A stretch of 64,000 nt of DNA from an uncultured bacterium (GTDB lineage Bacteria > Methylomirabilota > Methylomirabilia > Methylomirabilales > 2-02-FULL-66-22): NCBI GenBank assembly GCA_964576535.1, contig CAZNWB010000001.1:243-64242 (forward strand), written 5' to 3'. Below the pieces are notes generated by a model. It was not told where the DNA came from and searched no databases. It worked only from the letters and a program-made list of their open reading frames with translations. Shown piece by piece: positions 10,672 to 41,258 of the stretch; the first letter of the stretch is position 1; each line of letters opens with the position of its first letter. Position numbers and translations under genes: made by a program.

Positions 10672-10738
10672 GTAGTTATGTTGTTTCCCTCAGATCGTGT
10701 ATCAAGAACATCGATCGCCGTTCGAGGGCGTGCATGAT

Positions 10739-13501: not shown

Positions 13502-13548
13502 CCCCTATGCCGATCCGCCTTCACTACAGGACCATGAGCCGAATCCGC

Positions 13549-14835
13549 CTACCAGCCCAGCCATTCCTTCTCCCACTTATCGGGCCAGCGCTTCTTGAGG
13601 TCAACCTCCTTCAACAGGGCGAACTTCTTGTCCTTGATCATGTAGATCCGAACCAGCGGGCCGGGCCGATGGTCGGACGCCGTGATGGTGATGGGTGCCC
13701 GGCCCAGTCCTGGCGTCCACTCCCGCAGGGTCTCGAAGGCCTCCTTCACCCCGGGGCCACGCACTTCCCGCGGCAGCTCCTTTCCATCCTTATCAAACAG
13801 CTTCCCGGCTTTGTCAGCGCGGACCAGCGCCTCCCGCATCATCAGGACGTCCACCCAGGACTGCACCGTCCGGATGAGACGGTTCTCCAGCGGCACGCCA
13901 GGGTTCATTCGTTTGGCGTACTCCATTACCTTGTCCATCAGGGGGACCGGCTCGCCAAAGAAGGCATTGACGGCCGCGCCCATAACCCGTTCCGAGGCCG
14001 GTCCCGCCAGCTTGATCAGGTTCTCGTCGTAGCCCCAGTTGTTGACGATGTGGTCGGCGCCCAACCCCAGGGCGTGGGCGTCCTTCACCGCCGTGGCCAC
14101 GGACATCGTCGTGTTGCCGTGCCAGACCAGGTGCGGGCCGAAGTTCTTGGCGGCCAGGACCTGGCTCTTGGTGTCCAGGGCGGTCAGGGGGACGTCCTGA
14201 TCCGGGCCGATCTCAAAGCCCAGGAGCGTGGCTTGGTCCTTGATAGCCTTGATCGGGGCGCTGGCATACGGGACGGGCCACCCGTAAAAGGCGACGAATC
14301 GGGGCTTCACCCCCTTCTCCCGGTCCGCCTTGAACTTGGGGTCCTTGAGCCAGACCTCGTCATACCACGCCGTGAGGGCCGCCCGTGCATTGCTGGAATA
14401 GTCGGTCCCGTAGACGAAATTGTACGGCGTCTTCTTGGGGTCGGTCAGGTGAGACGAGAAGGAGTGGGAGAGATATGGCATCTTGTCGGCGTTTACCGTG
14501 GGCGAGAGGGCCTCGGTGTCGCCCGTCCCCCACCCCCAAACCGCCCCCACCTTGTCGAAGTCCCGGAACCGCTTGTAGGTGGTTATGGCCTCCGGCACCC
14601 GGTAGCCGTAGTCGTAGAGGAACAGCTTGATGGGCTTGCCATTGATCCCGCCCGTGTCGTTCACGTACTGCACCGCCTCGCGCATCCCCAGGGCAATGTC
14701 CTTTCCCACATCCGAGGTGGGGCCTGTGAGGTCGTTGAGGGAACCCATCTTGACCACGCTCTGGGCGACGGCCTCGGATCCCATCGCCAGAAACAGGAAC
14801 AACCAGACAATTGACCACGCTCTTCTACGCATCAT
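13549..14835 (-). CDS. periplasmic substrate-binding protein, LivK/Leu-Ile-Val-binding family
   Basis: A signal peptide is present (WSIVWLFLFLAMGSEAVAQS). The size is typical of the type I periplasmic-binding fold, and the gene lies between the permease and ATPase genes. Confidence 0.75.
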   Translation of the reverse strand: MMRRRAWSIVWLFLFLAMGSEAVAQSVVKMGSLNDLTGPTSDVGKDIALGMREAVQYVNDTGGINGKPIKLFLYDYGYRVPEAITTYKRFRDFDKVGAVWGWGTGDTEALSPTVNADKMPYLSHSFSSHLTDPKKTPYNFVYGTDYSSNARAALTAWYDEVWLKDPKFKADREKGVKPRFVAFYGWPVPYASAPIKAIKDQATLLGFEIGPDQDVPLTALDTKSQVLAAKNFGPHLVWHGNTTMSVATAVKDAHALGLGADHIVNNWGYDENLIKLAGPASERVMGAAVNAFFGEPVPLMDKVMEYAKRMNPGVPLENRLIRTVQSWVDVLMMREALVRADKAGKLFDKDGKELPREVRGPGVKEAFETLREWTPGLGRAPITITASDHRPGPLVRIYMIKDKKFALLKEVDLKKRWPDKWEKEWLGW

Positions 14836-15107
14836 TCCCCCTCCTTTCTAAGTGCAACGTTCCGTCAACTCTACCCGCCTCGCACTCCAATTTCGAATAT
14901 CGAATCACGAAGGTCGAATTCTGAAATTCCCGTCGTGGTGCGTTGTAGGGAGGAGGCTGCACCCACGCTCTGCGTGGCTCTGCGTGGGTACCCACCTCCG
15001 AGAACGGAGGGCCACAAGGGCCCTCCCTACGGCGTAGGGCGGGGGCTTGTCCCCCGCCGGTCTGGTTTCCATCTTCATGGTGAACGAGTGGGCCCCGCCC
15101 ATGGCAC

Positions 15108-16172
15108 CTAATACGAGAACGGCCACAGGTTGAAATAGTTCTTCATCTGCTGCCAGCGGTAGGCCAGCCCCTTCGGCTCATACAAGAGGAACAGGACGAT
15201 GGCCAGGCCGAAGGCGGCCTCCTTGACATACAGGAATCGCTCCTGGAGCGCGGGGAAGCTATCGCTCAGGGGAATGATGGCAAACTTCAGGCCCTCCAGG
15301 ATCAGGGTGATGAACATGGCGCCGAAGATCGTCCCGTGCAAGCTCCCCGCGCCACCGATGAGGATCACCCCCACGATCCAGAGGGACCAGCTAAACTGGA
15401 AATGCTCCGGGCTCACGGCCAGGATGGAGGAGATCCAGAAGGCCCCCGCGATCCCCCCCAGGACGCCCGCCACGAAGAAGGCCAGGAGTTTGTACTTGAA
15501 AATGTTCACCCCCATGGCCTCGGCGGCGATGTCGTTGTCCCGGATGGCGATCCAGGCCCTGCCGACGCGGCTGCGGAGGAGGTTCGCCATGCCGGCCGTA
15601 CACAGGATGACCAGGACGATCATGAGGTAGTAGACCTTCAGCTCCGAGTCGATGATCCACGGGCCTATGCGGATGGTCCCGGGCGGCAGCGAGAAGAAAA
15701 TCCCCCGACCGCCGATCTGGCTGACGTACTGGGTGATGATGAAGTCCACGGTGATGAACTGGGCAGCCATGGTCGTCATGATCAGGTAGAAACCCTTCAC
15801 CCGGGCCGACGGCAGGCCGAAGAGAACGGACCAGAGGCCTGCCGCGATCGCACCCAAGACCACGCCGACGGGATAGGGAAGCCCGTACTGAAGCATGGCG
15901 ATGGCCGTGGCGTAGGCGCCCACGGCAATGAAGGCCGCATGGCCCAGGGTGATCTGGCCGCAGTACCCGATAAGCAGTTGCACCCCCATGGCGGACAGGA
16001 TCGTGTAGCCGATGATGTTGGCCACGGAAACCAGGTAGAGATTGGCCGTGAGGGGAAAGACCACCAGGAGGAACACGAGCAGGGCCACCATCTTGGCCCG
16101 GAGGAACGTTGTCCGCCACCAGGCGTGATCCTTGGCGTAATGCTCGAAGTAGACACCTGCTGGCAAATACAT
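15108..16172 (-). CDS. livM: ABC transporter permease
   Basis: This is a polytopic hydrophobic protein with LivM-like length and operon position. Confidence 0.8.
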   Translation of the reverse strand: MYLPAGVYFEHYAKDHAWWRTTFLRAKMVALLVFLLVVFPLTANLYLVSVANIIGYTILSAMGVQLLIGYCGQITLGHAAFIAVGAYATAIAMLQYGLPYPVGVVLGAIAAGLWSVLFGLPSARVKGFYLIMTTMAAQFITVDFIITQYVSQIGGRGIFFSLPPGTIRIGPWIIDSELKVYYLMIVLVILCTAGMANLLRSRVGRAWIAIRDNDIAAEAMGVNIFKYKLLAFFVAGVLGGIAGAFWISSILAVSPEHFQFSWSLWIVGVILIGGAGSLHGTIFGAMFITLILEGLKFAIIPLSDSFPALQERFLYVKEAAFGLAIVLFLLYEPKGLAYRWQQMKNYFNLWPFSY

Positions 16173-16200
16173 CTCAATCCTGCCTCAATGCAAAACTGAC

Positions 16201-16265
16201 AACCGACAACTGACAATGTGAAACCGAGGAGGTGGGATGCATTGGCCGGCTGTCAGTTGTCGGTT
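16201..16265. repeat. intercistronic hairpin with arms built from GACAAC units
   Basis: AACCGACAACTGACA (16201-16215) pairs perfectly with TGTCAGTTGTCGGTT (16251-16265). It lies between the livH stop and the livM start. Confidence 0.8.
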
Positions 16266-16287
16266 TTACATTTTTCATTGAGCGTCC

Positions 16288-17172
16288 TTAGACGCGTTCG
16301 ATCTTCACCCAGCCCCACAGGCCGTACGGACGGAACCACAGGATGATGACCATGAAGGCGAAGGGGGCGATCTCCTTGATCCCGCCAGGGGTGAAGCGGC
16401 TCAGATAGCCGTCGGACAGGTTCTGCAGGAGGCCGATGGCGAATCCGCCCACGATGGCACCAGGCACGGAGTTGAGTCCTCCCAAGACCACGGCCGGGAG
16501 CACCAGGAGGCCCAGGTACCCCACCGAGATGTTCAGGCCGTTGATGTTCCCCAAGAGAGTTCCCCCGACGCCCGCCGCCATGAAGGCGATGGCCCAGGCC
16601 AGGGCGTACACTCGATGGGCGCTGACGCCCAGGGAGAGCGCGGCCATCTCGTCGTCTGCAGTGGCCTGCATGGACAGCCCCCACCGCGTGTACTTGAAGA
16701 AGGCCACGAAGACCACCAGCATGACCAGGGCGGCGAGGAAGCTCCACACGTAGACCTCCCCTACCACGATCCGTCCCCACCGAATCGGCTCGGCCGGGAA
16801 GACCGGCGGCGTAAAGACCCGCGTGTCGGTCCCCCAGATGAATGCCACGATCCCACGAAAGAAGAAGGACAGGCCGACCGTCACCATGATGACCGCCAGG
16901 ACCGACTCCCCAATCATCCGGCGGAGGAATAGCCGTTCCGTGAGCAGTCCCAGGATGAAGCCGATGATCAGCGTCCCCACCACAGCGAGGGGGAAGGGGA
17001 TGCCCCAGGTGTAGAAGCTCAGGCAGACATAGCCGCCGATCAGTGTGAGCTCTCCCATGGCGAGGTTTAGGACCCCCGAGCACTTGTATATAAGGGTCCA
17101 GCCCAGAGCCACCAGGGCGTAGATACTCCCCACCATGAGGCCCGTGATCAGGAGCTGGCTGAAGAGGTCCAT
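16288..17172 (-). CDS. livH: ABC transporter permease
   Basis: This is a polytopic hydrophobic protein with the LivH-like N-terminus MDLFSQLLITGLMVGSIYALVALG. Confidence 0.85.
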   Translation of the reverse strand: MDLFSQLLITGLMVGSIYALVALGWTLIYKCSGVLNLAMGELTLIGGYVCLSFYTWGIPFPLAVVGTLIIGFILGLLTERLFLRRMIGESVLAVIMVTVGLSFFFRGIVAFIWGTDTRVFTPPVFPAEPIRWGRIVVGEVYVWSFLAALVMLVVFVAFFKYTRWGLSMQATADDEMAALSLGVSAHRVYALAWAIAFMAAGVGGTLLGNINGLNISVGYLGLLVLPAVVLGGLNSVPGAIVGGFAIGLLQNLSDGYLSRFTPGGIKEIAPFAFMVIILWFRPYGLWGWVKIERV

Positions 17173-17176
17173 GGCC

Positions 17177-19120
17177 TTAGCTTCCTGCCGCGTCGGGGAC
17201 CTCGAGGACGGAAAGTTCCGCCTTCACCTCCGCCACCCGACCATCCTCGTAGGTGACGGTCGTCCCCACGCCGACTCGTTCGGCCCCACTGTAGATCGAC
17301 TCCACCAAGTCGTGATAGCGGTCCTCCAGGAAGGCCCGCCGGAGTTTCCGCGTCCGCGTCAGTTCCTCGTCGTCGGCGTCGAACTCCTTGGACAGGTTGA
17401 GGAACCGCCGGACCCGCGCCGCGGCCGGCAACTGGGCGTTGGCCTTCCGGATCTCCCCCTGGATGAGCTTGTAGATCCGGGGATCCTGGGACAGCTCCTG
17501 GTAGCTGGTGTAGGCGATGTGATTGTCCTCGGCCCACTTGCCCACCACGCTGTAGTCTATGCAGATGACGGCCGCGCCGAAAGGCCGCTGGTGGCCCAGG
17601 ACCCAGGCATCCTTGATGTATGGGCTGAACTTCAACCGGCTCTCCAGGAACATGGGCGAGAAGCGGCTCCCGTCGCTGAGGATGAAGACGTCCTTGGTCC
17701 GGTCAAAGAAGACCAGGTGGCCGTCCGGGTCGATGAAGCCGGTGTCCCCGGAGTATAGCCACCCGTCCCGTAGGGTCTTGGCCGTCGCCTCGGGGTCCTT
17801 GTAGAAACCCTTGAAGACCGAGGGGCTGCGCGAGATGATTTCGCCCTCGGGGGTAATCCGGACGTCCGTTTCGGGGATCGGCTTGCCGACCGTGTCGCAC
17901 TTGATGTCGTCGCTCCGGTGGACCACCGAGATGCCGGCAATCTCGGTCTGGCCGTAGATCTGCTTCAGGTTCACACCGATGGCGTGGAAGAAGCGGAAAA
18001 AGTCGGGTCCCAGGGCGGAGCCGCCGCTGTAGGCGTTCCGGATGCGGGAGAGTCCCAGGTGGTCCCGGAGCTTCCTGTGGACCGCCTGATCCGCCAGATA
18101 CCCCAGGACCCGCCAGGGCCAGGGGGCGGCACGCTTGGCCAGCTTGAAATCCGCCAGCCGGTAGCCGATGTCGAAAGCCCACTCGTACATCGCGCGTTTC
18201 GCGCGACTGGCGTCCAGGTACTTCACCTGGATGGTCCGCACCATCTGCTCGTAGAACCGGGCTGAGGAAAAAACTGCGTGGGGGGATATCTCCCGGAGGT
18301 TGGCAACGACCGTTTCCGGTTCCTCGGGAAAGTTGAGGGTGAATCCGGCCATGAGCCCGCAGGAGAGGGACATCATCTGCTCGCCGATCCAGGCCATGGG
18401 CAGGAAGGAGACGAAGTCGTCCGCCTCCAGGCAGGGATCCACCCGCATGAGGTTCTGCCCCATCTTCAGCATGTTGGTGTGGGTGAGCAGCGCTCCCTTC
18501 GGCTTGGCCGTGGTCCCGGAGGTGTAGAAGAGCAGGCAGATGTCCTCGCCGTGTCCCTGCTCAATTAGGGCCTCGAACCGGCCCGCCTGGCGTTCCGCGA
18601 GGTCGCGGCCCAGGCGCTGGACCTCGCTGAATCGGATGAGGGCCGGATCCTGGTAACCGCGCATCCCCTTGGGATCGTCCCAGATGATCCGTTCCAGCCT
18701 GGGGCAGCGGGCCTTGATGGCCAGCGCCTTGTCCACCTCTTCCTGGCCCTCGGCCACCAGGAAGCGGGCGTCCGAATGATCCACGATGTACTGGACTTCA
18801 TCTATCAGGGCGTCCTGGAACAGCCAGACAGCCACCCCGCCCGCGCACAGGGCCGCCATCTCCGCGAACAACCCCTCGGGGCGATTGTCCCCGATCATGG
18901 CCACCTTGTCCCCGCGCCGAAGGCCGAGGGCGGTGAGTCCCAGGGCGAAGGATCGGACGTTGTCCAGGTAGCCGGCCCAGGTGATCGGGCGCCAGATGCC
19001 GAATTCCTTCTCTCGCATCGCCACCCGCTGGTCCTGCTCTCCCGCCTTCCGGGCAAAGAGTTTGGGGATGGTGAGATCAGGCGTGATCCCGATCTCTACC
19101 CCGCTAGCGACGCGAGACAT
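17177..19120 (-). CDS. AMP-dependent acyl-CoA ligase embedded in the ABC transporter operon
   Basis: AMP-binding motifs are present (FYTSGTTAKPKGA, IYGQTEIAG). Its start overlaps the livG stop. Confidence 0.8.
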   Translation of the reverse strand: MSRVASGVEIGITPDLTIPKLFARKAGEQDQRVAMREKEFGIWRPITWAGYLDNVRSFALGLTALGLRRGDKVAMIGDNRPEGLFAEMAALCAGGVAVWLFQDALIDEVQYIVDHSDARFLVAEGQEEVDKALAIKARCPRLERIIWDDPKGMRGYQDPALIRFSEVQRLGRDLAERQAGRFEALIEQGHGEDICLLFYTSGTTAKPKGALLTHTNMLKMGQNLMRVDPCLEADDFVSFLPMAWIGEQMMSLSCGLMAGFTLNFPEEPETVVANLREISPHAVFSSARFYEQMVRTIQVKYLDASRAKRAMYEWAFDIGYRLADFKLAKRAAPWPWRVLGYLADQAVHRKLRDHLGLSRIRNAYSGGSALGPDFFRFFHAIGVNLKQIYGQTEIAGISVVHRSDDIKCDTVGKPIPETDVRITPEGEIISRSPSVFKGFYKDPEATAKTLRDGWLYSGDTGFIDPDGHLVFFDRTKDVFILSDGSRFSPMFLESRLKFSPYIKDAWVLGHQRPFGAAVICIDYSVVGKWAEDNHIAYTSYQELSQDPRIYKLIQGEIRKANAQLPAAARVRRFLNLSKEFDADDEELTRTRKLRRAFLEDRYHDLVESIYSGAERVGVGTTVTYEDGRVAEVKAELSVLEVPDAAGS

Positions 19121-19919
19121 ACAAATCCTCCACCTCTCCCAGGTATGCGCGAGTCACCTCGGGGTTGGTCTGCACCTCGGCCGGGGGTCCCTCCGCGATC
19201 TTCTCCCCGAAGTTCAGCACCGCCACCCGGTGCGAGATGTCCATGACGACCCCCATGTCATGCTCGACCAGGACACAGGTCACCCGCCAGCGCTCTTCCT
19301 CGTTGAGGTCCAGGATGAAACGCGCCATGTCCTCCACCTCCTCCAGGTTCAAGCCGGCCATGGGCTCGTCCAGGAGGAGGATCCGGGGCTGCAGGGCCAG
19401 GGCCCGCGCCAGCTCCACCCGCTTCTGCAGGCCGTAGGGAAGCATGCCGACAATCTTGTCACGGACGTGGGCGATCTCCAGGAGGTCAATGATCTCCCGC
19501 TCGATGAACTCTCGGTGGACCCGTTCCTCTCGCGCGGCCTTCCCGGCGTAAATCGCGCCGGAAAGTATTCCGGCGCGCATGTGCAGATGGCGCCCCAGGC
19601 GAATGTTGTCCAGGACGGTCATCCCCGAGAAGAGTTCGATCTTCTGGAAAGTCCGGGCGATCCCCAGCTCCGCGCGCTTGTGCGGCGCAAGGTGGGCAAT
19701 GTCCTGGCCCTCGAAGAGGATTCGCCCCCCGTCTGGGCGGTAGAGGCCATTGATGCAATTCAAGAGGACCGTCTTTCCGGCCCCGTTCGGCCCGATGAGG
19801 GAAAAGATCTCCCCCCGGCGGACATCCAGGCTGACCCCGACCAGGGCCTGGACCCCACCGAACGAAATGCGCAGGTCGTCCACCTTGAGATGGATCTCGT
19901 CGCGCGCCGGCTGGGTCAT
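19104..19919 (-). CDS. livG: ABC transporter ATP-binding protein
   Basis: Walker A is GPNGAGKTV and Walker B is LLLDEPMAG. The C-terminal extension typical of LivG is present. Confidence 0.85.
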   Translation of the reverse strand: MTQPARDEIHLKVDDLRISFGGVQALVGVSLDVRRGEIFSLIGPNGAGKTVLLNCINGLYRPDGGRILFEGQDIAHLAPHKRAELGIARTFQKIELFSGMTVLDNIRLGRHLHMRAGILSGAIYAGKAAREERVHREFIEREIIDLLEIAHVRDKIVGMLPYGLQKRVELARALALQPRILLLDEPMAGLNLEEVEDMARFILDLNEEERWRVTCVLVEHDMGVVMDISHRVAVLNFGEKIAEGPPAEVQTNPEVTRAYLGEVEDLYVSRR

Positions 19920-23221: not shown

Positions 23222-23268
23222 GAACAGACATGCCTGGGTAATTCGAGAGAGAAAAGGAGCGATTGCCT

Positions 23269-24396
23269 ATGGTGCCGTTTGACGCCAAGAAGCTGGCAGG
23301 TCTCATGGAAGACGCGGGGGTTTCCCTGGTCCTCGCCAGCACCCGCCACAATGTCCGCTATCTTACCGGCGGCTACTACTTCCACTTCCACGAGCGCTTC
23401 ACCCGTATCGGGAGAAGCCAATACCTTCCACTGGTCGGCCTGCCCCACCGGCGCCTCGAAGAGGCCTTCTATACCGGCCGCCCCGACGAGGCAGGTCAGA
23501 TCGAGGCCGAGGGTCTCTGGATCGTCAACCGCCCCACTGCCACGCGCGGCACCGTTGGCGCAGCCGAGGCGGCGGCTGCCGCGACGCAGAAGCTTGGCCT
23601 GGCCAACGCCACCATCGGCGTGGAACTCCCCTTCCTGCCGGCGGACGCCTTTCTCGTCCTCCAGCGGTTGCTGCCGCACGCGCAATTTGTGGATGCCACC
23701 ACGGTCCTAGACGAGTTGCGCGCCGTGAAGAGCGCTGCCGAACTGGCTCACCTGCGGACGGTGTACGACCGGACGGCCCAGGCTATCCAGGCGACCTTTG
23801 CTTCGGGCACGCCAGGCATCACGACCGCGGCCGTCGCTGAGCGCGTCCGCCGGGAGATGGCGGACCGGGGCTTGGAGTTCCTCTGGGCCTTCACCTGCGC
23901 CGGGCCGGGCACCCTGCGGGCGCCCTCCCAGGTCCGGTGGGAGCGGGGACGCGTCCTGCACATTGATGCCGGGGGCGAGGACCGGGACTACCTGGCCGAC
24001 GTCTGCCGGATGGGGTGCCTGGGGGAACCCTCTCCCCTTGCCAGGGAGCTACACGCCGCCTGCCTCGAGGTCCAAGGGCGTGTCCGAAAGATCGTCCGGG
24101 CGGGCTTGCCGTGCAAGGAGGTGCTGGCAGAGGGCGAGCGCGCCGTCCGCGAGAACCGGTTCGCCCTGTACGCTCGCTTCATTGCCCATGGGATCGGCAT
24201 GGTCTCCCACGAGCAGCCGGAGATCACGCCGACCAACTCCCGCGCGCTGGCGGCCGGAATGGTCCTCTCCATCGAGACCGAGTGCATTTATCCCCAGGTC
24301 GGCCACGTGAAGATCGAGGACGCGGTGGCGGTGACGGAGAGAGGGTGCGAGGGACTCGGGGACATCGGTCGCGAGTGGCAGATCGTCCCGGCGTGA
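23269..24396 (+). CDS. M24 family metallopeptidase (Xaa-Pro dipeptidase/creatinase-like)
   Basis: Metal-ligand contexts are present (HIDAGG, YLADVCR, AHGIGM, SIETE, KIEDAV). The ATG at 23269 lies 9 nt after AAGGAG. The track start at 23263 is a TTG. Confidence 0.75.
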   Translation: MVPFDAKKLAGLMEDAGVSLVLASTRHNVRYLTGGYYFHFHERFTRIGRSQYLPLVGLPHRRLEEAFYTGRPDEAGQIEAEGLWIVNRPTATRGTVGAAEAAAAATQKLGLANATIGVELPFLPADAFLVLQRLLPHAQFVDATTVLDELRAVKSAAELAHLRTVYDRTAQAIQATFASGTPGITTAAVAERVRREMADRGLEFLWAFTCAGPGTLRAPSQVRWERGRVLHIDAGGEDRDYLADVCRMGCLGEPSPLARELHAACLEVQGRVRKIVRAGLPCKEVLAEGERAVRENRFALYARFIAHGIGMVSHEQPEITPTNSRALAAGMVLSIETECIYPQVGHVKIEDAVAVTERGCEGLGDIGREWQIVPA

Positions 24397-24413: not shown

Positions 24414-25444
24414 GGGGTCAGGCCTTTATAACTTTATTTTCCACGCAAGCGCTCCTCCACCCGACCGACCAGCCGGGCGAGAGTTGGATTCGAGTCGAGG
24501 CGTTGCCGCAGTCGCTGGACTTGGAGGCTGAGAGTCACGGCCGCGCGACGTAACGCCCGGGCAGTCTCCGAATATTGGATGCCAGCAAGGTCGTAACCCA
24601 CGTAGGCGGCAATCGCCCGCGCCGTGGCCAAGTTGCGAACCCGGCTAGGTGTCCGGATGTCGAGCGGCCGCACCCCAGTCACTTCACACGTAGCACGGAC
24701 ACATTCCTCAACCGTCAGGCGGAGCCGCCGATGCTCAGGGCGGATCCTCCCTTTTCGCTCTGCTGTCTCAATGAACGCTTCACTGCCGAGATACCGCTGC
24801 TCGACTAGCTCGTACAAGTCCTCCCGATGGCCTTCGCCCATGCCATCCGCAATGAACCGGCGGTAGGCCGTGCGCCGACGAGGACCTCCTCGGCCGAAAT
24901 GGCCCAGAATCTGTTCCACGGAGACCCAGCTGGAAGGTGCCGACTCCAGGTAGGCCTTGTGACTGCTCCATCCCCATCGTTCCGGCGCCTGGACCAACCC
25001 GGCGCGAACCGGATTCAGATGGAGGTACCGCACAAGGGTGAGAAGATAGGCGTCTCGATCACACAGGATCGCCTTGTAGCGGCCCTGAAAGCAGTGGCCC
25101 GTAAGTCGATATTTCTTGTTGAAGTAGGCCGTGTAGCTTTGCTGGATTCCCTGCATGATCTTCGCCAATGGGACGCTGTCCGTTTCTACCAGTAGGTGGA
25201 TGTGATTCGGCATCAGAACATAGGCGTACACGTGAAAACCATAGCGCTGGTGATATCGCTGTAGGAGGTTTTCGTACCTGGCGTAGTCGCTGGCATCGCG
25301 GAAGGATCGCTGCTTCTGGTTTCCGCGACCCATAACATGGAACAGGGCGCCTGGGAAATCTATGCGAGTCGGGCGTGCCATGGTGCGATTTATAGCCCAA
25401 CATAACATGGAATGGCAATAATAAAGTTATAAAGGCCTGACCCC
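24414..25444 (-). mobile_element. RayT/IS200-like single-gene element bounded by a perfect 25-bp inverted repeat
   Basis: GGGGTCAGGCCTTTATAACTTTATT (24414-24438) is the exact reverse complement of AATAAAGTTATAAAGGCCTGACCCC (25420-25444). The outer ends carry a CCTGACCCCRAAT motif, which is tandemly duplicated at 25438-25462. Confidence 0.8.
24434..25381 (-). CDS. REP-associated tyrosine (HUH, Y1) transposase-like protein with C-terminal DnaA-C-like HTH
   Basis: The HUH motif context is YVLMPNHIHLLVE, and the downstream Tyr region is QQSYTAYFNKKY. The C-terminal segment RNLATARAIAAYVGYDLAGIQYSETARAL looks like an HTH. The start is an ATG at 25381. Confidence 0.8.
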   Translation of the reverse strand: MARPTRIDFPGALFHVMGRGNQKQRSFRDASDYARYENLLQRYHQRYGFHVYAYVLMPNHIHLLVETDSVPLAKIMQGIQQSYTAYFNKKYRLTGHCFQGRYKAILCDRDAYLLTLVRYLHLNPVRAGLVQAPERWGWSSHKAYLESAPSSWVSVEQILGHFGRGGPRRRTAYRRFIADGMGEGHREDLYELVEQRYLGSEAFIETAERKGRIRPEHRRLRLTVEECVRATCEVTGVRPLDIRTPSRVRNLATARAIAAYVGYDLAGIQYSETARALRRAAVTLSLQVQRLRQRLDSNPTLARLVGRVEERLRGK

Positions 25445-25491: not shown

Positions 25492-26643
<1,152 letters not shown>

Positions 26644-26657
26644 TGTTCCTTCAAATG

Positions 26658-26788
26658 AGCGTTCGGTCGTTCGGGGCACCCACGCCACGGCGGTGGAGAT
26701 CCACCGCGGTGCCGTGGGTCCCGGTGGTTCGGTCGTTCTTGATCTGAGGGAACCACCGAACGACCGAACTGCCGAACCGTCGAACGCT
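26658..26788. repeat. CGAAC/GTTCG-unit palindromic intercistronic element, copy A
   Basis: The element runs AGCGTTCGGTCGTTCGG...GGTGGTTCGGTCGTTC-loop-GAACCACCGAACGACCGAACTGCCGAACCGTCGAACGCT. A nested palindrome CCCACGCCACGGCGGTGGAGATCCACCGCGGTGCCGTGGG is inserted in the left arm. Confidence 0.85.
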
Positions 26789-26796
26789 TTATGTTC

Positions 26797-27333
26797 CTAG
26801 GCGGGTACGAAATACACGTCCGTCGGCTTGAACTTGGACAGGCGCTTGAACTGCGCGCGCACCTTCATTCCCACCCAGTCCAGGGACGGCTTGAGCGGGT
26901 CCACCCCCATCAGCCGGGCCAGGAACAGGGTGTTTACCCCCGGCCACTCGACCAGGATGAGGACGAAGGGAGTCTCCTTCAGGAACTCCTCGCTGCCGTA
27001 GTGGCAGACCGTGAAGGTATGGACGTTGCCTTCCTTCGGCAGCTCGACCCAGTCACACTCGCCCCCGCAGTACATGCAGTGCAGCCGGGGCGTGCCGTAG
27101 GTGTACTTGCACGGCGCGCACCGCGTCCCCAGCAGCTTCCCGTTGGCCAGGCCGGCAAAGAAGGGTGAATCCTGGCCGTAGCTGTGGATATAATCAATGT
27201 GATAGGGCTGCTTGATGATGATGGGCGCCATCCCCTTCAGGTCCTTGAGATCCTTGGGGAACGGCACGTTGAACAGGATGGTCCCGTCGTCGGTCTCCGG
27301 GAGCTTCACCCGCTTCATCTCTTTCTCGCTCAT
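26797..27333 (-). CDS. DUF35 OB-fold / zinc-ribbon acyl-CoA-associated protein
   Basis: The start is an ATG at 27333 (MSEKEMK...). The zinc ribbon is CAPCKYTYGTPRLHCMYCG, followed by an OB-fold-like tail. Only the last 179 codons of the 502-aa track ORF are credible. Confidence 0.8.
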   Translation of the reverse strand: MSEKEMKRVKLPETDDGTILFNVPFPKDLKDLKGMAPIIIKQPYHIDYIHSYGQDSPFFAGLANGKLLGTRCAPCKYTYGTPRLHCMYCGGECDWVELPKEGNVHTFTVCHYGSEEFLKETPFVLILVEWPGVNTLFLARLMGVDPLKPSLDWVGMKVRAQFKRLSKFKPTDVYFVPA

Positions 27334-27335
27334 GG

Positions 27336-28649
27336 CTAGAACCCCTTCTCGAGGATCGAGACCACGACGTAGGTCCCCGTGCCGGCGTGGCTGTGGATGG
27401 CCCCACGCCGTGCGTTTTTCACCTGGAGCTGCTCGCTGCCGAAGTGCTTCCCGATACTCCCCTGGAGCTGCCACAGGGCGAAGACCGCCTGCATGAGACC
27501 CGTGGCCCCCACGGGATGACCGCAGGCAATGAGGCCTCCTGACGGGTTCACCGGGATCGTTCCCTGCTCCGAAAAGGGATACCCGTAATCCAGGTTCGGC
27601 ATGAAGGGCTTGCCGGCCTCGACGAACTTGCCCCCCTCTCCGTAGCGGCAGAGGCCCATGTCCTCGTAGGTCTGGATCTCGGACGAGGTGTAGGCGTCGT
27701 GCAGCTCGATGAAGTTTAGCTCCGCGATCGGGTTGGTGATCCCGGCCATCTGGTAGGCGGTCTTGGACGCCATGCGCCCGGCCCGGAACGAGTGGACCCC
27801 GGGATACTTCAACCCCTTGTAATCCTCGGCCTTCTCGTGGGGGAGCCGAATGACCTCGGCGTGGGGCCGGTCCGCCATTCGCATGGTGTCGATGCCTCCA
27901 CCTACGCCGGTCACCTTGGCGGGCTTTGGCCGGCGGCCCGTGGCCTTCTCCAGCTTGTTCAAACCCTCCTCGCTGGCAAGAATGACGACGGCCGCGCCAT
28001 CGCTCATAACGCAGATGTCCAGCATGGTGAGGGGCCAGGCCACCATCTCCGAGGCCCGGACATCCTCGATTCGGATCTTCATCCGCTTCTGGGCGTATGG
28101 GTTGTGCAAGGCGTTGTTGTGATTCTTCACCGAGACCAGCGCCATCTGCTCCACGGAGGTTCCGAACTCCTGCATGTGGCGGACCACCATCATGGCGTAA
28201 TAGCCGGAGTAGAAGCCGCCCACCGGGTAGTCGAAGCTCACATCCGAGGCCAGGGCGATGAACTCGTTCCCCTTCCATGTATTCACGTGGGACATCGTTT
28301 CCCAACCGTACACGACGCAGAGGTCAAACCGGCCGGAGGCCACGGTCTCCCACCCCGACTGGAATGCCACCCCACCCGTGGCACCCCCCGCCTCAATGCG
28401 CTTGGTGGGCTTGGGACACAGGCCCAGGTAGTCCTGGACCATGCTCCCCGCCTTGAGCTGGCGCATGAAGTGATCCGAGAAATAGGACGCCACGGTCCCG
28501 TCCACGATCTCGGCGGCCTTCCGGAATTCCAGCCCGATGTCCTTGAGGGCGTAATCGTACGCCTCCTTGACCATCGCCTGGAACGTCACGTCCGGCCGTG
28601 CCTTGGCGAACTTGCTGACCCCCCCCGAAACCAGGTACACGGGTCGCAT
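27336..28649 (-). CDS. SCP2-thiolase-fold protein lacking the nucleophilic cysteine (Ltp2-like, candidate aldol-lyase)
   Basis: Thiolase-fold motifs are present (NPSGGLIACGHPVGATG). The position of the nucleophile reads IEAGGATGG, where thiolases carry C in NNNCATGS / ACASG. The gene is adjacent, across a 2-nt gap, to the DUF35 gene. Confidence 0.7.
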   Translation of the reverse strand: MRPVYLVSGGVSKFAKARPDVTFQAMVKEAYDYALKDIGLEFRKAAEIVDGTVASYFSDHFMRQLKAGSMVQDYLGLCPKPTKRIEAGGATGGVAFQSGWETVASGRFDLCVVYGWETMSHVNTWKGNEFIALASDVSFDYPVGGFYSGYYAMMVVRHMQEFGTSVEQMALVSVKNHNNALHNPYAQKRMKIRIEDVRASEMVAWPLTMLDICVMSDGAAVVILASEEGLNKLEKATGRRPKPAKVTGVGGGIDTMRMADRPHAEVIRLPHEKAEDYKGLKYPGVHSFRAGRMASKTAYQMAGITNPIAELNFIELHDAYTSSEIQTYEDMGLCRYGEGGKFVEAGKPFMPNLDYGYPFSEQGTIPVNPSGGLIACGHPVGATGLMQAVFALWQLQGSIGKHFGSEQLQVKNARRGAIHSHAGTGTYVVVSILEKGF

Positions 28650-28682: not shown

Positions 28683-29087
28683 TCACCTGGGTTTCACGTT
28701 GGTCTTCACGAAGGCAATGGCATCCTGGGTGCTGGCACCCGGCGTGTAGACTTCGGCGATCCCGCAGGCCTTCAGCTTGGGGATGTCCTCGTCAGGAATG
28801 GTGCCCCCGCCAAAGACCAGGACGTCGTCCGCACCCCGGGCCTTCAGGAGTTCCATCACCTTGGGAAATAGATGCATGTGGGCCCCGGAGAGGCAGCTCA
28901 TGCCGATGACGTCCACGTCTTCCTGGATGGCGGCGCTCACGATCATCTCCGGCGTCTGCCGTAACCCGGTGTAGATGACCTCCATCCCCGCGTCGCGAAA
29001 CGCCCGCGCAATGACTTTCGCTCCTCGGTCGTGTCCATCTAATCCCGGTTTGGCAATCAATACTCGAATCTTCCGCTCATTGGTCAT
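28683..29087 (-). CDS. B12-binding small subunit of a split acyl-CoA mutase (IcmB-like)
   Basis: The start is an ATG at 29087 ([25 protein letters not shown]). The DxHxxG cobalamin motif is present, and the size is about 134 aa. Confidence 0.9.
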
Positions 29088-29118
29088 GGCTCTGTCCCCT
29101 GGCCCCTGGCCCCCGTCT

Positions 29119-30819
29119 CTAAATGATATTCGGCTCCGTGTACTCGCCCCACGCCTCGCGCAAGACGCCGATGATCTCGCCCACCGTCGCCTGGGCCTTG
29201 ACTGCCTCCAAGATCTTCGGCATGAGCACGTCTTTCCCCCACGGGTCCTTGCCCAGGGCGGCGGCGCGCAGATCGTCAATCGCGCGATTCCACCGGTCCT
29301 TGTCCCGGCTCTTTCGAAGCGAGGCCAGGCGCTCCACCTGCTTCCGGTGCAGTGCCTCGTCAATGAGGAGAATGGGGATCGGGCGCTGCTCATTGTCATC
29401 CACGAAGCGGTTCACGCCCACGATCACCTTCTCCCCCCGCTCCACCGCCCGCTGGTAGGCATAGGCGGAGTTGGCAATCTCCTGCTGCGGGAATCCCAAC
29501 TCGATGGCACGAACCATCCCGCCCAGCTCGTCAATGCGGCGCAGGTAGTCGAGGGCCCCTTCCTCCATCTCGTCGGTCAGCCGCTCGATGAAATAGGACC
29601 CGGCCAGCGGGTCAATGGTATTGGTCGCGCCCGTTTCGTGCGCGATCACCTGCTGCGTCCGGAGGGCGATGGTCACCGCCTCTTGCGTGGGCAGGGCGTA
29701 GGCTTCGTCCATGGAGTTGGTGTGCAACGACTGGGTACCGCCCAGGACGCCGGCGAGGGCCTGGAGGGCCACCCGGGCGATGTTCACGTACGGCTGCTGC
29801 GCCGTGAGGGACACCCCGGCGGTCTGGGCGTGGGTCCGGAGCATCCAGGAGCGGGGATTCTTGGCCTTGAACCGCTCCCGCATCAGGCGCGCCCACAGCC
29901 GACGAGCCGCGCGGAACTTGGCGATCTCCTCGAAGAGATCGTTGTGGATGTCCCAGAAGAACGAAAGCCGCGGCGCGAAGTCGTCCACGTCCAGACCGGC
30001 TCGGATCCCTTCCTCGACATAGGTGACGCCGTCGGCGATGGTAAAGGCCAGCTCCTGCAGCGCGGTGGCGCCCGCCTCGCGGATGTGATACCCGCTGATG
30101 CTGATGGTGTTCCACTTGGGGAAGTGCCGGCTGCCGAACAGGATGGTGTCGGTCACGAGGCGGAGCGACGGCTTCAAGGGAAAGATGTATTCCTTCTGGG
30201 CGATGTACTCCTTCAGGATGTCGTTCTGGAGCGTCCCCCCGATGTCGTCGTGGGCGACCCCCATCTGCTCGCACACCGCGATGTACATGGCCCATGCCAC
30301 CGCCGCGGTCGAGGTGATCGTCATGGAGGTGGTGACCTTGTCCAGGGGCAGGCCGCGGAACAGGACCTCCATGTCCTGAATCGAGTCGATGGCCGCCCCG
30401 CACTTCCCCACTTCGCCAAACGCCAAGGGATGATCGGAATCGTACCCCATGAGGGTCGGCAGGTGGAACGCCACCGACAGGCCCATCTGCCCCTGTCCCA
30501 GGAGATACCGGTAGCGCTGGTTGGTCTCCTCGGCCGAGCCAAAGCCCGAGTACTGCCGCATGGTCCAGAGCCTGCCCCGGTACATCGTGGACTGGACCCC
30601 GCGGGTGAACGGATACTCCCCGGGAAATCCCAGGTCCTTTCGGTAATCCAGCTCAGGGACGTCCAGGGGCGTGTATAGGCGTTCGATCGGTTTCCCGGAC
30701 ACGGTGGTGAACCGGTCGGACAGTTCCGGGGCCCGGTCCACATGCGGCCCCAGCGTCTCTCGTTCCCAACGGGCCTTGTCCTGTTTCAGCCGCTCAATTT
30801 CTTCCGGGTCGAACGTCAT
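29119..30819 (-). CDS. acyl-CoA mutase large (substrate-binding) subunit, IcmA-like
   Basis: Mutase motifs are present ([53 protein letters not shown]). The size is 566 aa and the RBS is GGAGGGG. Confidence 0.9.
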
Positions 30820-39364: not shown

Positions 39365-40543
39365 TCAAATCCGTTCCACCGCCATGGCGAGACCCTCTCC
39401 TCCCCCCAGGCAGAGGGTGGCCACGCCGCGCCGGGCGCCCCGATCGGCCATGGCATAGAGCAGGGTGACCAGCAGGCGCGCCCCCGTCGCCCCGATGGGG
39501 TGCCCCAGGGCCACGACGCCGCCGTTCACGTTCACCCGTTCCGGGTCCAGTCCCAGCTCCTGAATGGCCGCCATGGCCACTACGGAGAAGGCCTCGTTGA
39601 CCTCGTACAGGTCCACGCTGTCTGCGGACCAGCCGGTCTTCTTGAGCACCTTCCGCACGGCCTCGATGGGCGCCACCGTGAACCACTCCGGCGCAGTCGC
39701 CGCGCCCGCAAACCCGACGATCCGGGCCAGGGGGGTGAGGCCGAGCGCCTCGGCTCGACGGGCCGAGGCGACGACCAGCGCCGCCGCCCCGTCATTGACC
39801 GAGGGCGAATTGGCCGCGGTCACCGTCCCGCCCTCCTTGAAGGCCGGCTTGAGCCGCCGCATCTTGGTGAGATCGCCCCGCTTCGGCTCCTCGTCCTCGG
39901 CCACCGTCGCGACCTCGCCCTTGCGAGCCGGGACAGGCACCGGCACGATCTCGGCCGAAAACCTCCCGGCGGCCTGGGCCGCCAGGGCGCGGGTGTAGCT
40001 CCGTGCAGCGTAGTCGTCCTGTGCCTCGCGCCTGAAGCGGTACTTCTCGGCGCACAACTCCCCGCAATAGCCCATGGAATACTGGTTGTACACGTCCCAC
40101 AGGCCGTCCAGGATCATGGAGTCAATGAGCTGGGCGTGGCCCATCCGGTATCCGGTGCGGGCCCGATCCAGGAGGTAGGGTGCGCGGCTCATGCTCTCCA
40201 TGCCGCCGACCAGGACCATCTCTGCCTCGCCCACCTGGATGCGGTTGGCGGCCAGGATCGCGGCCATCATCCCGGACCCGCACACCTTGTTTACCGTGAG
40301 GGCCCCGGCCGTCACCGGCACCTTGGCGCCGATGGCCACCTGGCGGGCCGGCGCCTGGCCCAGCCCGGCCGACAGGACGTTGCCGAAGATCGCTTCGTCC
40401 ACCTGCGCGGGCTCCACGCCGCCGCGGCGCAACGCCTCGGCCGCGGCGATGCTGCCGAGTTGCGTGGCCGGAATCGCCGCCAGGCTGCCGCTGAAACTCC
40501 CGATGGGGGTTCTGGCTGCCCCCACAATCAGAACATCTTGCAA
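39365..40543 (-). CDS. acetyl-CoA C-acetyltransferase (true thiolase)
   Basis: The nucleophile context is VNKVCGSG, and the C-terminal catalytic motifs are GHPIGATG and CLGGGEG. The probable start is a TTG at 40543 behind GGAGAG (393 aa). The ATG at 40615 gives an atypical extension. Confidence 0.85.
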   Translation of the reverse strand: MQDVLIVGAARTPIGSFSGSLAAIPATQLGSIAAAEALRRGGVEPAQVDEAIFGNVLSAGLGQAPARQVAIGAKVPVTAGALTVNKVCGSGMMAAILAANRIQVGEAEMVLVGGMESMSRAPYLLDRARTGYRMGHAQLIDSMILDGLWDVYNQYSMGYCGELCAEKYRFRREAQDDYAARSYTRALAAQAAGRFSAEIVPVPVPARKGEVATVAEDEEPKRGDLTKMRRLKPAFKEGGTVTAANSPSVNDGAAALVVASARRAEALGLTPLARIVGFAGAATAPEWFTVAPIEAVRKVLKKTGWSADSVDLYEVNEAFSVVAMAAIQELGLDPERVNVNGGVVALGHPIGATGARLLVTLLYAMADRGARRGVATLCLGGGEGLAMAVERI

Positions 40544-40577
40544 TGCTCTCTCCTCTGCCCGCAGGCTCCCCGGCGCC

Positions 40578-41258
40578 TCAGCTCCCCTGCCCCGCCGCAC
40601 CGAGGTTGCCGTCATTGGATGTGAGGTATGCCGGCCGGTCAGCGCTGATGCCGTCCAGGATCAGGTTGGTCAGGCACTCGATCACGGCATCCAGTGTGTA
40701 GCTCTTCAGATTCCATCGCTTCAGATCCCACACCGCGCAGAGGAACAGGAGGCACACCGCCAGGAGGTGCGGTTCCTTCACGGCAAAGTGCCCGGCTCGA
40801 TTTCCCCGCTCCAGGATCTCCCGGAAGACTCCGACGTAGGTGCGATCCACCTCGAAGAGGGCTTGGAGTCCCTGGCGGCCCAGGGCGTGTGACTCCTGGT
40901 ACAGCAGGACGACGACGTCCTCGCACTCGTCGTAGATCTTGAGGGTCGCCTCCAGCGCCGCCTTGAGCTGCAGGCGGGGATCCTGGATGCCCTGCGTGGC
41001 CGCTAGCATCCTGGCTTCGAACGTCCCGAGGATCCGGCGGTACACCAGGCAGAGGATGTCTTCCTTGGTCTTGATGTAGCTGTACAGGGTGCCGATGCCC
41101 AGGCCGCAGCTCTCGGCGATCTCGCGGACGCTGGTCTGGTGATACCCCTTCTTGGAGAAGAGCTTGATCGCGGCATCGCAGATCTGCGCATGCCGCTTGC
41201 CAACCAACTCCTGGTCTTTGACGATTGTTTCGATCTCTTGGGGCGTGTTTTTTCCCAT
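40578..41258 (-). CDS. TetR family transcriptional regulator
   Basis: The N-terminal HTH is GYHQTSVREIAESCGLGIGTLYSYIKTKEDIL. This is the first gene of the co-directional acyl-CoA catabolic array. Confidence 0.85.
   Translation of the reverse strand: MGKNTPQEIETIVKDQELVGKRHAQICDAAIKLFSKKGYHQTSVREIAESCGLGIGTLYSYIKTKEDILCLVYRRILGTFEARMLAATQGIQDPRLQLKAALEATLKIYDECEDVVVLLYQESHALGRQGLQALFEVDRTYVGVFREILERGNRAGHFAVKEPHLLAVCLLFLCAVWDLKRWNLKSYTLDAVIECLTNLILDGISADRPAYLTSNDGNLGAAGQGS

Follow-up and report, generated by a model that had tools for sequence, protein, structure and literature searches.

The window, a stretch of 64,000 nucleotides from an uncultured bacterium of the Methylomirabilota (NC10), carries on its minus strand a pair of adjacent genes that encode a 437-residue thiolase-fold protein lacking both catalytic cysteines and a 178-residue DUF35 protein. 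The former had been described in the first-pass annotation as an SCP2-thiolase-like open reading frame (ORF) that keeps the motifs NPSGG and GHPVGATG, and its coordinates, reading frame and motifs were all borne out, with NPSGG at residues 368–372 and GHPVGATG at residues 377–384. The ORF matches the Pfam families Thiolase_C_1 (1.5e-26), Thiolase_N (4.3e-12) and Thiolase_C above the gathering scores and is of the SCP2/archaeal type. Its nearest NCBIfam model, NF004982 (PRK06365), aligns end to end at 649 bits without reaching the curated cutoff of 695; this model is named only 'thiolase domain-containing protein' and so adds no function to the protein. The DUF35 gene follows after the 2-nt spacer that had been noted at first pass, as read from the junction ...TTC TAG CC ATG AGC... 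between the thiolase-like stop codon and the DUF35 start codon. The stretch GAGAAGGGG near the 3′ end of the thiolase-like gene lies where the ribosome-binding site of the DUF35 gene would be expected. The features of the pair are as follows.

27336–28649, minus strand: thiolase-fold protein, 437 residues, both catalytic cysteines missing (ORF, Pfam and AlphaFold2 model).
28371–28400, minus strand: loop R84-I-E-A-G-G-A-T-G-G93, with the Gly89 codon (28383–28385) at the position of the nucleophilic cysteine (HMMER alignments to 6ESQ_A, 7YVY_A, 7PXP_C and 6HSJ_A).
27690–27701, minus strand: H317-D-A-Y320, counterpart of the SCP2-thiolase motif HDCF, with alanine in place of the acid/base cysteine (alignments).
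27516–27518, minus strand: His378 of the retained NPSGG...GHPVGATG motif, invariant in the Cys-less family and in thiolases (alignments).
27384–27395, minus strand: H419-S-H-A422, the Cβ4/Cβ5 catalytic loop, which is H-N-[VLM]-G in thiolases (column comparison and neighbour-joining tree).
28467–28487, minus strand: S55-Y-F-S-D-H-F61, a clade-specific invariant polar segment, with D59/H60 where thiolases have glycine or a gap (alignments).
27774–27890, minus strand: family-specific insertion, residues 254–292, DxMRMxDRPH..LPHE..DY..YPGxHSFRxGR (invariant columns in the family alignment).
26797–27333, minus strand: DUF35 protein, 178 residues, with an N-terminal extension, a CxxC...CxxC zinc ribbon and an OB fold (Pfam PF12172 and PF01796).
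27148–27285, minus strand: N-terminal extension of the DUF35 protein, about residues 17–62, 'PFP...L..PI...Y.I.Y.SYGQDSPFFA' (conservation over 64 orthologues).
27067–27120, minus strand: zinc-ribbon ligands C72, C75, C86 and C89 (sequence; all four cysteines kept in 35 of 64 orthologues).

The loop that holds the nucleophile in thiolases reads RIEAGGATGGVAF (residues 84–96). HMMER pairs 'RIEAGGATGG' from this loop with 'RVEAACASGS' of the archaeal thiolase 6ESQ_A and 'KIEAACASGG' of 7YVY_A, and also with the corresponding segments of BbsB and SCP2 thiolases. The column of the nucleophilic cysteine is thus occupied by Gly89, the second glycine of the loop. A MAFFT alignment and the AlphaFold2 model agree with this placement, and the cysteine-to-glycine replacement that had first been proposed by eye is upheld. 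In the MAFFT alignment of 145 sequences, the Gly89 column is glycine in all 41 core family members and cysteine in all 58 thiolase-type sequences, the latter having been picked for a cysteine at this column. The family alignment shows no variation at residues G88, G89, A90, T91, G92 and G93. The cysteine of the segment LGLCPKP (Cys78), which the first-pass annotation had named as one that alignment software might place at the nucleophile position, lies 11 residues upstream of Gly89; the alignments do not bring it to the nucleophile position, and the family does not conserve it throughout.

The second catalytic cysteine, the acid/base residue in the HDCF motif of SCP2-type thiolases, is also gone, leaving HDAY with Ala319. 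HDAY alone does not exclude thiolase membership, as true thiolases such as BbsB carry HDAF. With both catalytic cysteines missing, however, classical ping-pong thiolase action is impossible. Both thiolase histidines (H317 and H378) and the segment N368–G372 are kept and are invariant across the Cys-less family. The 437-residue protein is therefore not a thiolase by its catalytic residues, although it is a thiolase by fold and ancestry.

Database searching returned 4,968 relatives at E ≤ 1e-20, and the best 120, which are 73–98% identical to the window protein, were examined. The pattern R[IV]E[AG]GGATG is found in 119 of these 120 (the remaining one falls outside the search pattern) and HDA[YF] in all of them, which rules out chance or a sequencing error; the GHP motif or a near variant is likewise present in all 120. 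They derive from NC10/Methylomirabilota, Zixibacteria, Brocadiia, Deltaproteobacteria, Acidobacteria, Burkholderiales, Melainabacteria and LCP-89. When one genome per species was scanned, relatives turned out to be encoded in at least 485 stretches. Gene context was counted over 80 fetched loci, all of them from uncultured metagenome-assembled genomes and spread over more than ten phyla; the nearest relative among them is from an NC10 bacterium at 95% identity.

A wider Cys-less clade, at 42–51% identity, was delineated with a search of 50%-identity representatives and a neighbour-joining tree, in which the Sal and Ltp2 sequences were not included. It extends to Asgard archaea (Atabeyarchaeum and Njordarchaeum), Bathyarchaeia, Methanolliviera, Nitrospinota and Bacillota. 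In the tree, the Cys-less clade, archaeal relatives included, separates from the Cys-bearing thiolases. Loss of both cysteines is a family trait and not a local oddity.

A column-by-column comparison of 41 core family sequences, ten outlying Cys-less relatives and the 58 Cys thiolases identified the changes that travel with the loss of the cysteines. A88/C89 becomes G/G and HDCF becomes HDA[YF]. Furthermore, H-N-[VLM]-G becomes H-S-H-A, introducing S420 and H421, and positions 59–60 change from glycine or a gap to D-H. N56 is replaced by tyrosine or histidine, F147 by tyrosine, and an insertion of about 40 residues (254–292) appears at gap positions of all 58 Cys thiolases. The insertion is modelled well, with a block predicted local distance difference test score (pLDDT) of 88–94; its residue R257 is found in every sampled sequence, and Y282 is missing from a single one, where the alignment shows a gap. 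Despite changes elsewhere in the thiolase-like family, H317, D318, H378 and N368PSGG are invariant. The polar set Y/H56, D59, H60, Y147, R257, S420 and H421 is present even in archaeal relatives at 43–50% identity. From the aligned sequences, this set of co-varying polar residues looks like neofunctionalisation rather than decay.

An Asgard locus (L087, positions 6150–9787, Candidatus Atabeyarchaeum) carries two Cys-less thiolase-like/DUF35 pairs in tandem, adjoining an acyl-CoA dehydrogenase (ACAD). Copy one retains HDAYT, GHPVGATG and HSHAGTGTY and is 48% identical to the window protein. In copy two, both histidines have also been lost (YDMS and GAGTALG). The motifs of the two copies suggest that the tandem combines a catalytic and a non-catalytic pair. 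As the His-less paralogue shows what real decay looks like, conservation in the Cys-less family becomes more meaningful.

Many representatives in otherwise thiolase-like clades carry other residues at the nucleophile position: aspartate or glutamate in P0152, P0194, P0222, P0234, P0237, P0244, P0245, P0248 and P0253, proline in P0213, P0217 and P0229, and serine in P0197, P0204, P0249 and P0255, some of them still with HDCF. The thiolase nucleophile has thus been lost or replaced repeatedly, and such loss is common in sequence space.

The AlphaFold2 model, computed on a deep alignment, has a pLDDT of 96.2; a model on a shallow alignment of 15 sequences reached 65.5 and was discarded. Foldseek ranked 6ESQ_A first (E 1.4e-39, TM-scores 0.85/0.94, 29% identity). 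The order of structural matches was the archaeal thiolase 6ESQ/6ET9, BbsB, ST0096, SCP2 thiolases, PhlC and TbSLP, with Sal at rank 50. Sequence searches gave E-values of 3.8e-45 for 6ESQ_A, 7.5e-42 for BbsB, 2.5e-17 for Sal (9MYR_A) and 2.9e-9 for Ltp2 (6OK1_A). As the family is far nearer to true thiolases than to Sal or Ltp2 in both sequence and fold, its loss of the cysteines is independent of theirs.

The best match in sequence and fold is accordingly the archaeal acetoacetyl-CoA thiolase of Methanothermococcus thermolithotrophicus (6ESQ/6ET9), which shares the SCP2/archaeal-type fold and has as its partner a separately encoded DUF35 zinc-ribbon/OB protein, the best PDB match of the window DUF35 protein. 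Unlike the window protein with Gly89 and HDAY, the archaeal enzyme keeps the nucleophile segment EAACASGS and HDCF. The window system also adds the 254–292 insertion, the HSHA loop and an N-terminal extension of about 55 residues on the DUF35 protein. No gene for HMG-CoA synthase, the third member of the archaeal thiolase/HMG-CoA synthase/DUF35 system, lies nearby in the window. BbsB, the third-best match in sequence and fold, belongs to the bacterial benzoylsuccinyl-CoA thiolase BbsAB (7PXP), which resembles the window pair in having an obligate DUF35 zinc-finger subunit, BbsA, and an HDAF motif without the acid/base cysteine. In contrast to the window protein, BbsB keeps its nucleophilic cysteine (VQSACSAG) and is a true thiolase; the NCBIfam BbsB model scores the 437-residue protein at 151 bits against a cutoff of 750.

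The retro-aldolases Ltp2–ChsH2(DUF35) (6OK1) and Sal–Shy(DUF35) (9MYR) cleave 3-hydroxyacyl-CoA without a covalent intermediate, and both Sal and Ltp2 have glycine at the nucleophile position; in Sal, the glycine backbone contacts the β-hydroxyl group (PMC12329534). In these enzymes a tyrosine that opens the motif acts as catalytic base (Y294DHF in Ltp2, Y302DCY in Sal), and the acid is Tyr344 in Ltp2 or Cys304 in Sal (PMC12329534). The window protein shares the glycine in place of the nucleophilic cysteine. It differs in that the tyrosine base is replaced by the invariant His317 of HDAY, and in that the acid position is occupied by Ala319 (at the site of Sal Cys304) or by His378 (at the Tyr344/Gln352 site). 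The correspondence of His378 to the Tyr344/Gln352 position is our own, suggested by spacing, and is absent from PMC12329534. Furthermore, in Ltp2 and Sal the DUF35 domain is part of a fusion with a MaoC hydratase, and steroids are the substrates, whereas the window DUF35 protein is free-standing in a C4–C5 acyl-CoA context with a B12-dependent mutase. By the missing base and acid residues and by its distance in sequence and fold, the 437-residue protein is judged to lie outside the Ltp2/Sal-type aldolases. The first-pass annotation had cited Ltp2 as precedent for an aldolase; the glycine replacement and the DUF35 adjacency support that parallel, whereas the catalytic tyrosine, the nearness in sequence and fold and the steroid context do not carry over.

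A further Cys-less SCP2-type thiolase fold is that of TbSLP from Trypanosoma brucei (5AB4-7), which binds acyl-CoAs and is without an assigned physiological role. It differs from the window protein in having YDCF, in being eukaryotic and about 20% identical, and in that no DUF35 partner is described for it in the literature found. TbSLP has weak malonyl-CoA decarboxylase activity (PMC12329534). Among the literature on DUF35 proteins, no paper covering the present Cys-less family was found.

The DUF35 ORF matches OB_ChsH2_C (PF01796; 5.7e-12, 45.8 bits) and zf-ChsH2 (PF12172; 7.1e-6, 26.2 bits), both above gathering scores, and an NCBIfam scan of it gave no match. Its PDB matches are 6ESQ_E, 6OK1_B, 3IRB and 9MYR_B, which include the DUF35 subunits of the archaeal thiolase/HMG-CoA synthase, Ltp2–ChsH2 and Sal–Shy complexes. 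The DUF35 gene lies directly downstream of the thiolase-like gene in 70 of the 73 loci with enough sequence, and single-chain fusions of the two proteins occur (P0130 and P0135). A Rosetta-stone search for a third fusion partner returned thiolase-like/DUF35 fusions only. Adjacency and fusion thus predict that the two proteins are coupled in a complex.

The N-terminal extension of about 55 residues is the best-conserved part of the DUF35 protein across 64 orthologues, above the zinc ribbon and the OB fold. It is absent from the archaeal DUF35 protein of 6ESQ, the HMMER alignment to 6ESQ_E beginning at residue 66. The extension may protrude into the thiolase-like subunit or provide a different interface. 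The four zinc-ribbon cysteines have been lost in 29 of the 64 orthologues. In a Chloroflexi branch all four are swapped jointly while the rest of the protein is conserved, C72 becoming aspartate or glutamate, C75 threonine or serine, C86 aspartate and C89 serine or threonine (L043, with the DUF35 gene at 11366–11896, L046, L075, L038, L029 and about 25 others). Given these losses, zinc binding is not essential to the function of the family.

The pair is part of a minus-strand operon with the order TetR regulator, thiolase, 3-hydroxyacyl-CoA dehydrogenase, crotonase, ACAD, EtfB, EtfA, CCG-type Fe–S oxidoreductase, ACAD, mutase large subunit, mutase small subunit, thiolase-like protein, DUF35 protein and ACAD. 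Genes for MeaB and a CoA-transferase lie a few kb beyond the final ACAD, past a transposase-like gene and an M24 peptidase gene on the opposite strand. The 322-residue CoA-transferase had no match in an NCBIfam scan. The neighbouring genes that bear on the function of the pair are listed below.

28683–29090, minus strand: B12-binding small subunit of an acyl-CoA mutase, immediately upstream of the thiolase-like gene (Pfam B12-binding, TIGR00640).
29119–30819, minus strand: acyl-CoA mutase large subunit, isobutyryl-CoA-mutase-like (PF01642, 1.4e-222; best PDB match HcmA, 4R3U).
25492–26688, minus strand: short-chain ACAD with 'IGEGT', directly downstream of the DUF35 gene (Pfam and NCBIfam).
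39365–40615, minus strand: genuine type-I thiolase with VNKVCGSG, NEAF, GHPIGATG and CLGGG (canonical residues all present).

The last of these confirms the first-pass report of a genuine thiolase with VNKVCGSG in the same operon. As a canonical thiolase, a crotonase and a 3-hydroxyacyl-CoA dehydrogenase are separately encoded, the pair is not simply the pathway thiolase, as had also been claimed. The context, a B12 mutase and short-chain β-oxidation cluster, differs from that of steroid catabolism.

In the window mutase, glutamine occupies the position of Arg207 of methylmalonyl-CoA mutase (MCM) ('EYIAQKEY') and tyrosine the Tyr89/Phe80 position ('TMRQYSGF'). Alanine is found at the position of HcmA Asp117 and tyrosine at that of HcmA Ile90, and 'AFH' stands where MCM and 2-hydroxyisobutyryl-CoA mutase (HCM) have 'AFD'. 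This full Y/Q/AFH pattern is shared only with the closest NC10 relatives of the window (L007 and L008). At the other loci, the Phe/Tyr position of the linked mutase is readable in 14 of 26, with phenylalanine in 11 of these 14, and the second position is glutamine in most; the F/Q/AFD pattern is found in most of the linked mutases that are readable. Phe/Gln at the positions of MCM Tyr89/Arg207 is the signature of isobutyryl-CoA mutase. Methylmalonyl-CoA mutase is ruled out by the glutamine at Arg207. 2-Hydroxyisobutyryl-CoA mutase was rejected on the alanine at Asp117 and the tyrosine at Ile90; HcmA ranks first among PDB matches that contain no stand-alone isobutyryl-CoA mutase.

The ACAD downstream of the DUF35 gene has glycine in place of a tyrosine (Tyr375 of medium-chain acyl-CoA dehydrogenase (MCAD); 'IYEGT' in other ACADs) that obstructs branched chains in those enzymes. 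The motif was located in 26 orthologues, and 25 of them share the substitution. In the other two ACADs of the cluster the tyrosine is mostly kept. The equivalent glycine in isovaleryl-CoA dehydrogenase gives room to the branched chain (PMC12369846), and by analogy the simplest reading is a pocket widened for a branched short acyl-CoA. The likeness to isovaleryl-CoA dehydrogenase is only partial, since the MCAD-type catalytic glutamate is kept. PDB rankings of both ACADs flanking the pair and mutase are headed by short-chain/butyryl-CoA dehydrogenases and do not discriminate. The GTG start of the downstream ACAD at 26688 is probably too far upstream, because homology begins near Met16.

Of the related loci, 62 have 3 kb or more of upstream sequence, and 25 of these hold a mutase. 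Among the 80 fetched, the downstream ACAD occurs in 25 and a homologue of the B12-binding small subunit in 27. CoA-transferase A/B, MeaB, EtfAB/Fe–S proteins and ORFs of about 440 residues also recur; the LCP-89 copy of the last is an AtoE-like short-chain fatty-acid transporter (PF02667). The typical order is mutase large subunit, mutase small subunit, thiolase-like protein, DUF35 protein, ACAD, MeaB and CoA-transferase in Deltaproteobacteria, Gemmatimonadota, Planctomycetota and NC10, and it is rearranged in Chloroflexi. In many phyla the mutase small-subunit gene and the ACAD gene enclose the thiolase-like gene, and the stop codon of one gene sometimes overlaps the start codon of the next. 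Minimal modules in Melainabacteria and Anaerolineae consist of the pair, an ACAD of the downstream type and a CoA-transferase only. At three loci (L006, positions 9587–11858; L022; L077), only the B12-binding small subunit (about 133 residues, 63–65% identical to that of the window) precedes the pair, and no mutase large subunit lies within 10 kb. L006 has as its upstream neighbour a 331-residue membrane protein, with gatCAB on the other side, downstream. The small subunit is linked to the pair more tightly than the large subunit is. Median identity across the cluster is highest for the thiolase-like protein (71%), followed by the DUF35 protein and the mutase small subunit (65% each), the mutase large subunit (60%) and the ACAD (58%).

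Between the downstream ACAD and the MeaB/CoA-transferase genes lies a gene (24434–25408, minus strand) for a 324-residue protein with an IS200-like Y1 transposase domain and a DnaA-C-like helix-turn-helix, which scores 75.6 bits against the REP-associated tyrosine transposase model (cutoff 80). In the same interval, an M24 peptidase/creatinase-like gene (23263–24396, plus strand) has the opposite orientation. As ACAD, MeaB and CoA-transferase genes stand close together in that order in several related loci (e.g. L017, L039 and L073), these interval genes may be an insertion that split the cluster.

Upstream of the operon, 45934–49878 (minus strand) encodes a 1314-residue fused protein of the indolepyruvate/2-oxoacid:ferredoxin oxidoreductase family (1459 bits), and genes at 44178–45812 and 50390–51934 (both minus strand) encode an acyl-CoA synthetase (PRK08162, 899 bits) and an HpaB-family protein (HpaB_N and HpaB). 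The HpaB-family protein scores well below the cutoffs for 4-hydroxyphenylacetate monooxygenase; the Pfam family also includes 4-hydroxybutyryl-CoA dehydratases. From their family assignments, these three genes fit amino-acid or organic-acid catabolism. Elsewhere in the window, 12680–19919 (minus strand) holds a branched-chain-amino-acid-type ABC transporter operon with a binding protein, two permeases and two ATPases. A gene for a 647-residue AMP-forming fatty-acid-CoA ligase (17177–19120) is embedded in it between permease and ATPase genes, and a phenylacetate-CoA-ligase-like gene lies at 10739–12019.

The pair probably performs chemistry other than thiolysis, most plausibly an aldol-type C–C cleavage. 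Catalytic loops that are preserved without the nucleophile argue for retained CoA-thioester and enolate chemistry. Ltp2 and Sal, the two characterised thiolase-fold proteins with glycine at the nucleophile position and a DUF35 partner, are both retro-aldolases, acting on 3-hydroxyacyl-CoAs that are not degraded by way of oxidation and thiolysis (PMC12329534). By analogy with them, it is tentatively proposed that the thiolase-like/DUF35 pair is a Cys-independent, retro-aldol-type C–C lyase for short, branched 3-hydroxyacyl-CoA of a kind that ordinary β-oxidation is unable to oxidise. Aldolase activity is in this sense a plausible analogy and not a family-based assignment. Whereas the missing cysteines, the retained histidines, the remodelled and conserved active site, the obligate DUF35 pairing and the conserved gene neighbourhood are established by the present analysis, what reaction takes place, on which substrate and with what part for each residue is inferred.

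In the proposed scheme, the two gene products would form a heteromeric complex of thiolase-fold and DUF35 subunits. This complex would still bind a short acyl-CoA and stabilise its enolate, to judge from the retention of both thiolase histidines and of the NPSGG/GHP loops, and would form no acyl-cysteine intermediate. The CoA-transferase would activate the acid and the 'IGEGT' dehydrogenase would make the enoyl-CoA, which would then be hydrated by the crotonase or by the complex itself, possibly a combined hydratase/lyase. The complex would then cleave the Cα–Cβ bond, with His317, or the clade-specific His421 or Asp59/His60, serving as base and acid, and the backbone NH of Gly89 would contact the β-hydroxyl as in Sal. 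One candidate substrate is 3-hydroxy-3-methylbutyryl-CoA, derived from isovalerate or leucine, which would yield acetone and acetyl-CoA; it is the most compelling chemically, because its tertiary alcohol is not oxidisable. In parallel, the mutase would convert isobutyryl-CoA to butyryl-CoA, and the genuine thiolase would process straight-chain 3-ketoacyl-CoA. The cluster would then be a kit for branched-chain acids, in which the mutase straightens isobutyryl-CoA, the lyase removes the problem of the β-branch and canonical enzymes finish the degradation. The minimal modules fit a self-contained route of activation, dehydrogenation and cleavage. No aldehyde dehydrogenase recurs near the pair in related loci, which is compatible with a ketone product.

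Several observations weigh against a lyase of this kind. The catalytic residues of the known aldolases are missing, the tyrosine base being replaced by histidine and the cysteine or tyrosine acid by Ala319 or His378, and the family is of independent origin, with Sal and Ltp2 standing further from it than true thiolases do. The pair has no MaoC-type hydratase next to it or fused with it. After the DUF35 gene, the most tightly linked gene is that of the B12-binding mutase subunit, a linkage that the scheme leaves mechanistically unexplained. In about half of the loci, mostly in Anaerolineae and also in Brocadiia, the pair stands alone, and the context there gives no clue to the substrate. The argument from the ACAD glycine is by analogy only, as the MCAD-type catalytic glutamate is kept. 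On a broader and unlikely reading, a large, ancient clade spanning bacteria, Asgard archaea, Bathyarchaeia and Methanolliviera, of which the window protein would be the founding example, would have swapped the Cys/Cys set for a His/Asp/Ser set (D59/H60 and S420/H421) and would, together with the extended DUF35 protein, catalyse an unrecognised anaerobic step on short or branched acyl-CoA. Candidates for such a step are a carboxylase-independent cleavage of leucine-derived 3-methylcrotonyl-/3-hydroxyisovaleryl-CoA to acetone and acetyl-CoA, or a step mechanistically coupled to the B12-dependent isobutyryl-CoA mutase.

The main rival explanation, possible though doubtful, makes the pair an assembly hub, either non-catalytic or CoA-ester-holding, in which a dimer of the thiolase-fold protein with its DUF35 subunits would be the scaffold on which the isobutyryl-CoA mutase and/or the neighbouring ACAD dock. 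Such a hub would resemble archaeal complexes mediated by DUF35 proteins, and it might retain the CoA moiety as the acyl group moves from one active site to the next. DUF35 proteins bring thiolase together with HMG-CoA synthase, and a ketothiolase together with a reductase and a dehydratase (bioRxiv 10.1101/2024.07.05.601840; PMC12329534). Loss of both catalytic cysteines would suit such a role, as would the gene order, which in many phyla puts the thiolase-like gene between the small-subunit and ACAD genes, with codon overlaps in some; the thiolase-like protein is also the most conserved of the cluster, as is typical of a protein with many interfaces. A pure scaffold, however, needs neither the invariant histidines and NPSGG/GHP segments of the catalytic loops nor the new polar residues fixed in those loops, and roughly half of the loci have no mutase or ACAD near the pair, which in Brocadiia stands alone. 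It is also established that isobutyryl-CoA mutases elsewhere work without such a partner. The tight linkage to the mutase small subunit would fit a helper reaction on a substrate or product of the mutase, and the pair might then perform other Cys-independent enolate chemistry: decarboxylation of an alkylmalonyl-CoA, epimerisation of a 2-methylacyl-CoA for a stereospecific mutase, double-bond isomerisation, or hydration only. Cys-less ketosynthase-like proteins decarboxylate such thioesters, and His317/His378 resemble the His–His pair with which, as is well established, condensing enzymes decarboxylate malonyl thioesters. The weak malonyl-CoA decarboxylase activity of the Cys-less TbSLP is a further parallel (PMC12329534). 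No carboxylase, however, recurs in the related clusters, and neither isobutyryl-CoA nor butyryl-CoA has a stereocentre that needs an epimerase. Hydration would be consistent with three deltaproteobacterial loci (L026, L028 and L032) that hold thiolase, 3-hydroxybutyryl-CoA dehydrogenase, ACAD, mutase and the pair but no crotonase, whereas many other clusters, that of the window included, do have a crotonase. For none of these reactions does a DUF35 complex offer a precedent, and the group is considered rather improbable.

It is very improbable that the protein is still a thiolase with its nucleophile moved elsewhere, for example to Cys376 or Cys213. Both residues are invariant in the core family, and Cys376 lies two positions before His378. 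In the wider Cys-less clade, however, Cys376 is replaced by V, M, Q, F or G in sequences that retain all other signature residues, and some thiolases with an intact normal nucleophile have it too. Cys213 corresponds in the alignment to a cysteine common in ordinary SCP2-type thiolases, Cys78 is not invariant, and the acid/base cysteine is missing too. Cys78, Cys213 and Cys376 were therefore all rejected as nucleophiles on their conservation across the wider Cys-less clade.

Current annotation gives proteins of this family the names 'acetyl-CoA C-acetyltransferase' or 'thiolase domain-containing protein', and metabolic reconstructions consequently count a thiolase that cannot be one. The annotations concern hundreds of uncultured lineages, among them NC10, anammox Planctomycetota, Anaerolineae, Nitrospirota, Acidobacteriota, Deltaproteobacteria, Zixibacteria and Melainabacteria, as well as Asgard and other archaeal relatives. 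The top conservation within the operon and the remodelled active site make a specific, selected role in short/branched-chain fatty-acid or amino-acid turnover in anoxic habitats very likely. If the pair is an aldol-type lyase, thiolase-fold aldolases would extend from steroid catabolism to central small-molecule metabolism, and a compact enzyme that forms or cleaves C–C bonds on small CoA esters (acetone and acetyl-CoA) would be useful for biocatalysis. If it is instead a hub for the B12 mutase, it would represent a new type of mutase accessory complex. The pair belongs with the Cys-less thiolase-fold/DUF35 complexes, an already known kind, and there is a real chance that it represents a new and environmentally broad enzyme family.

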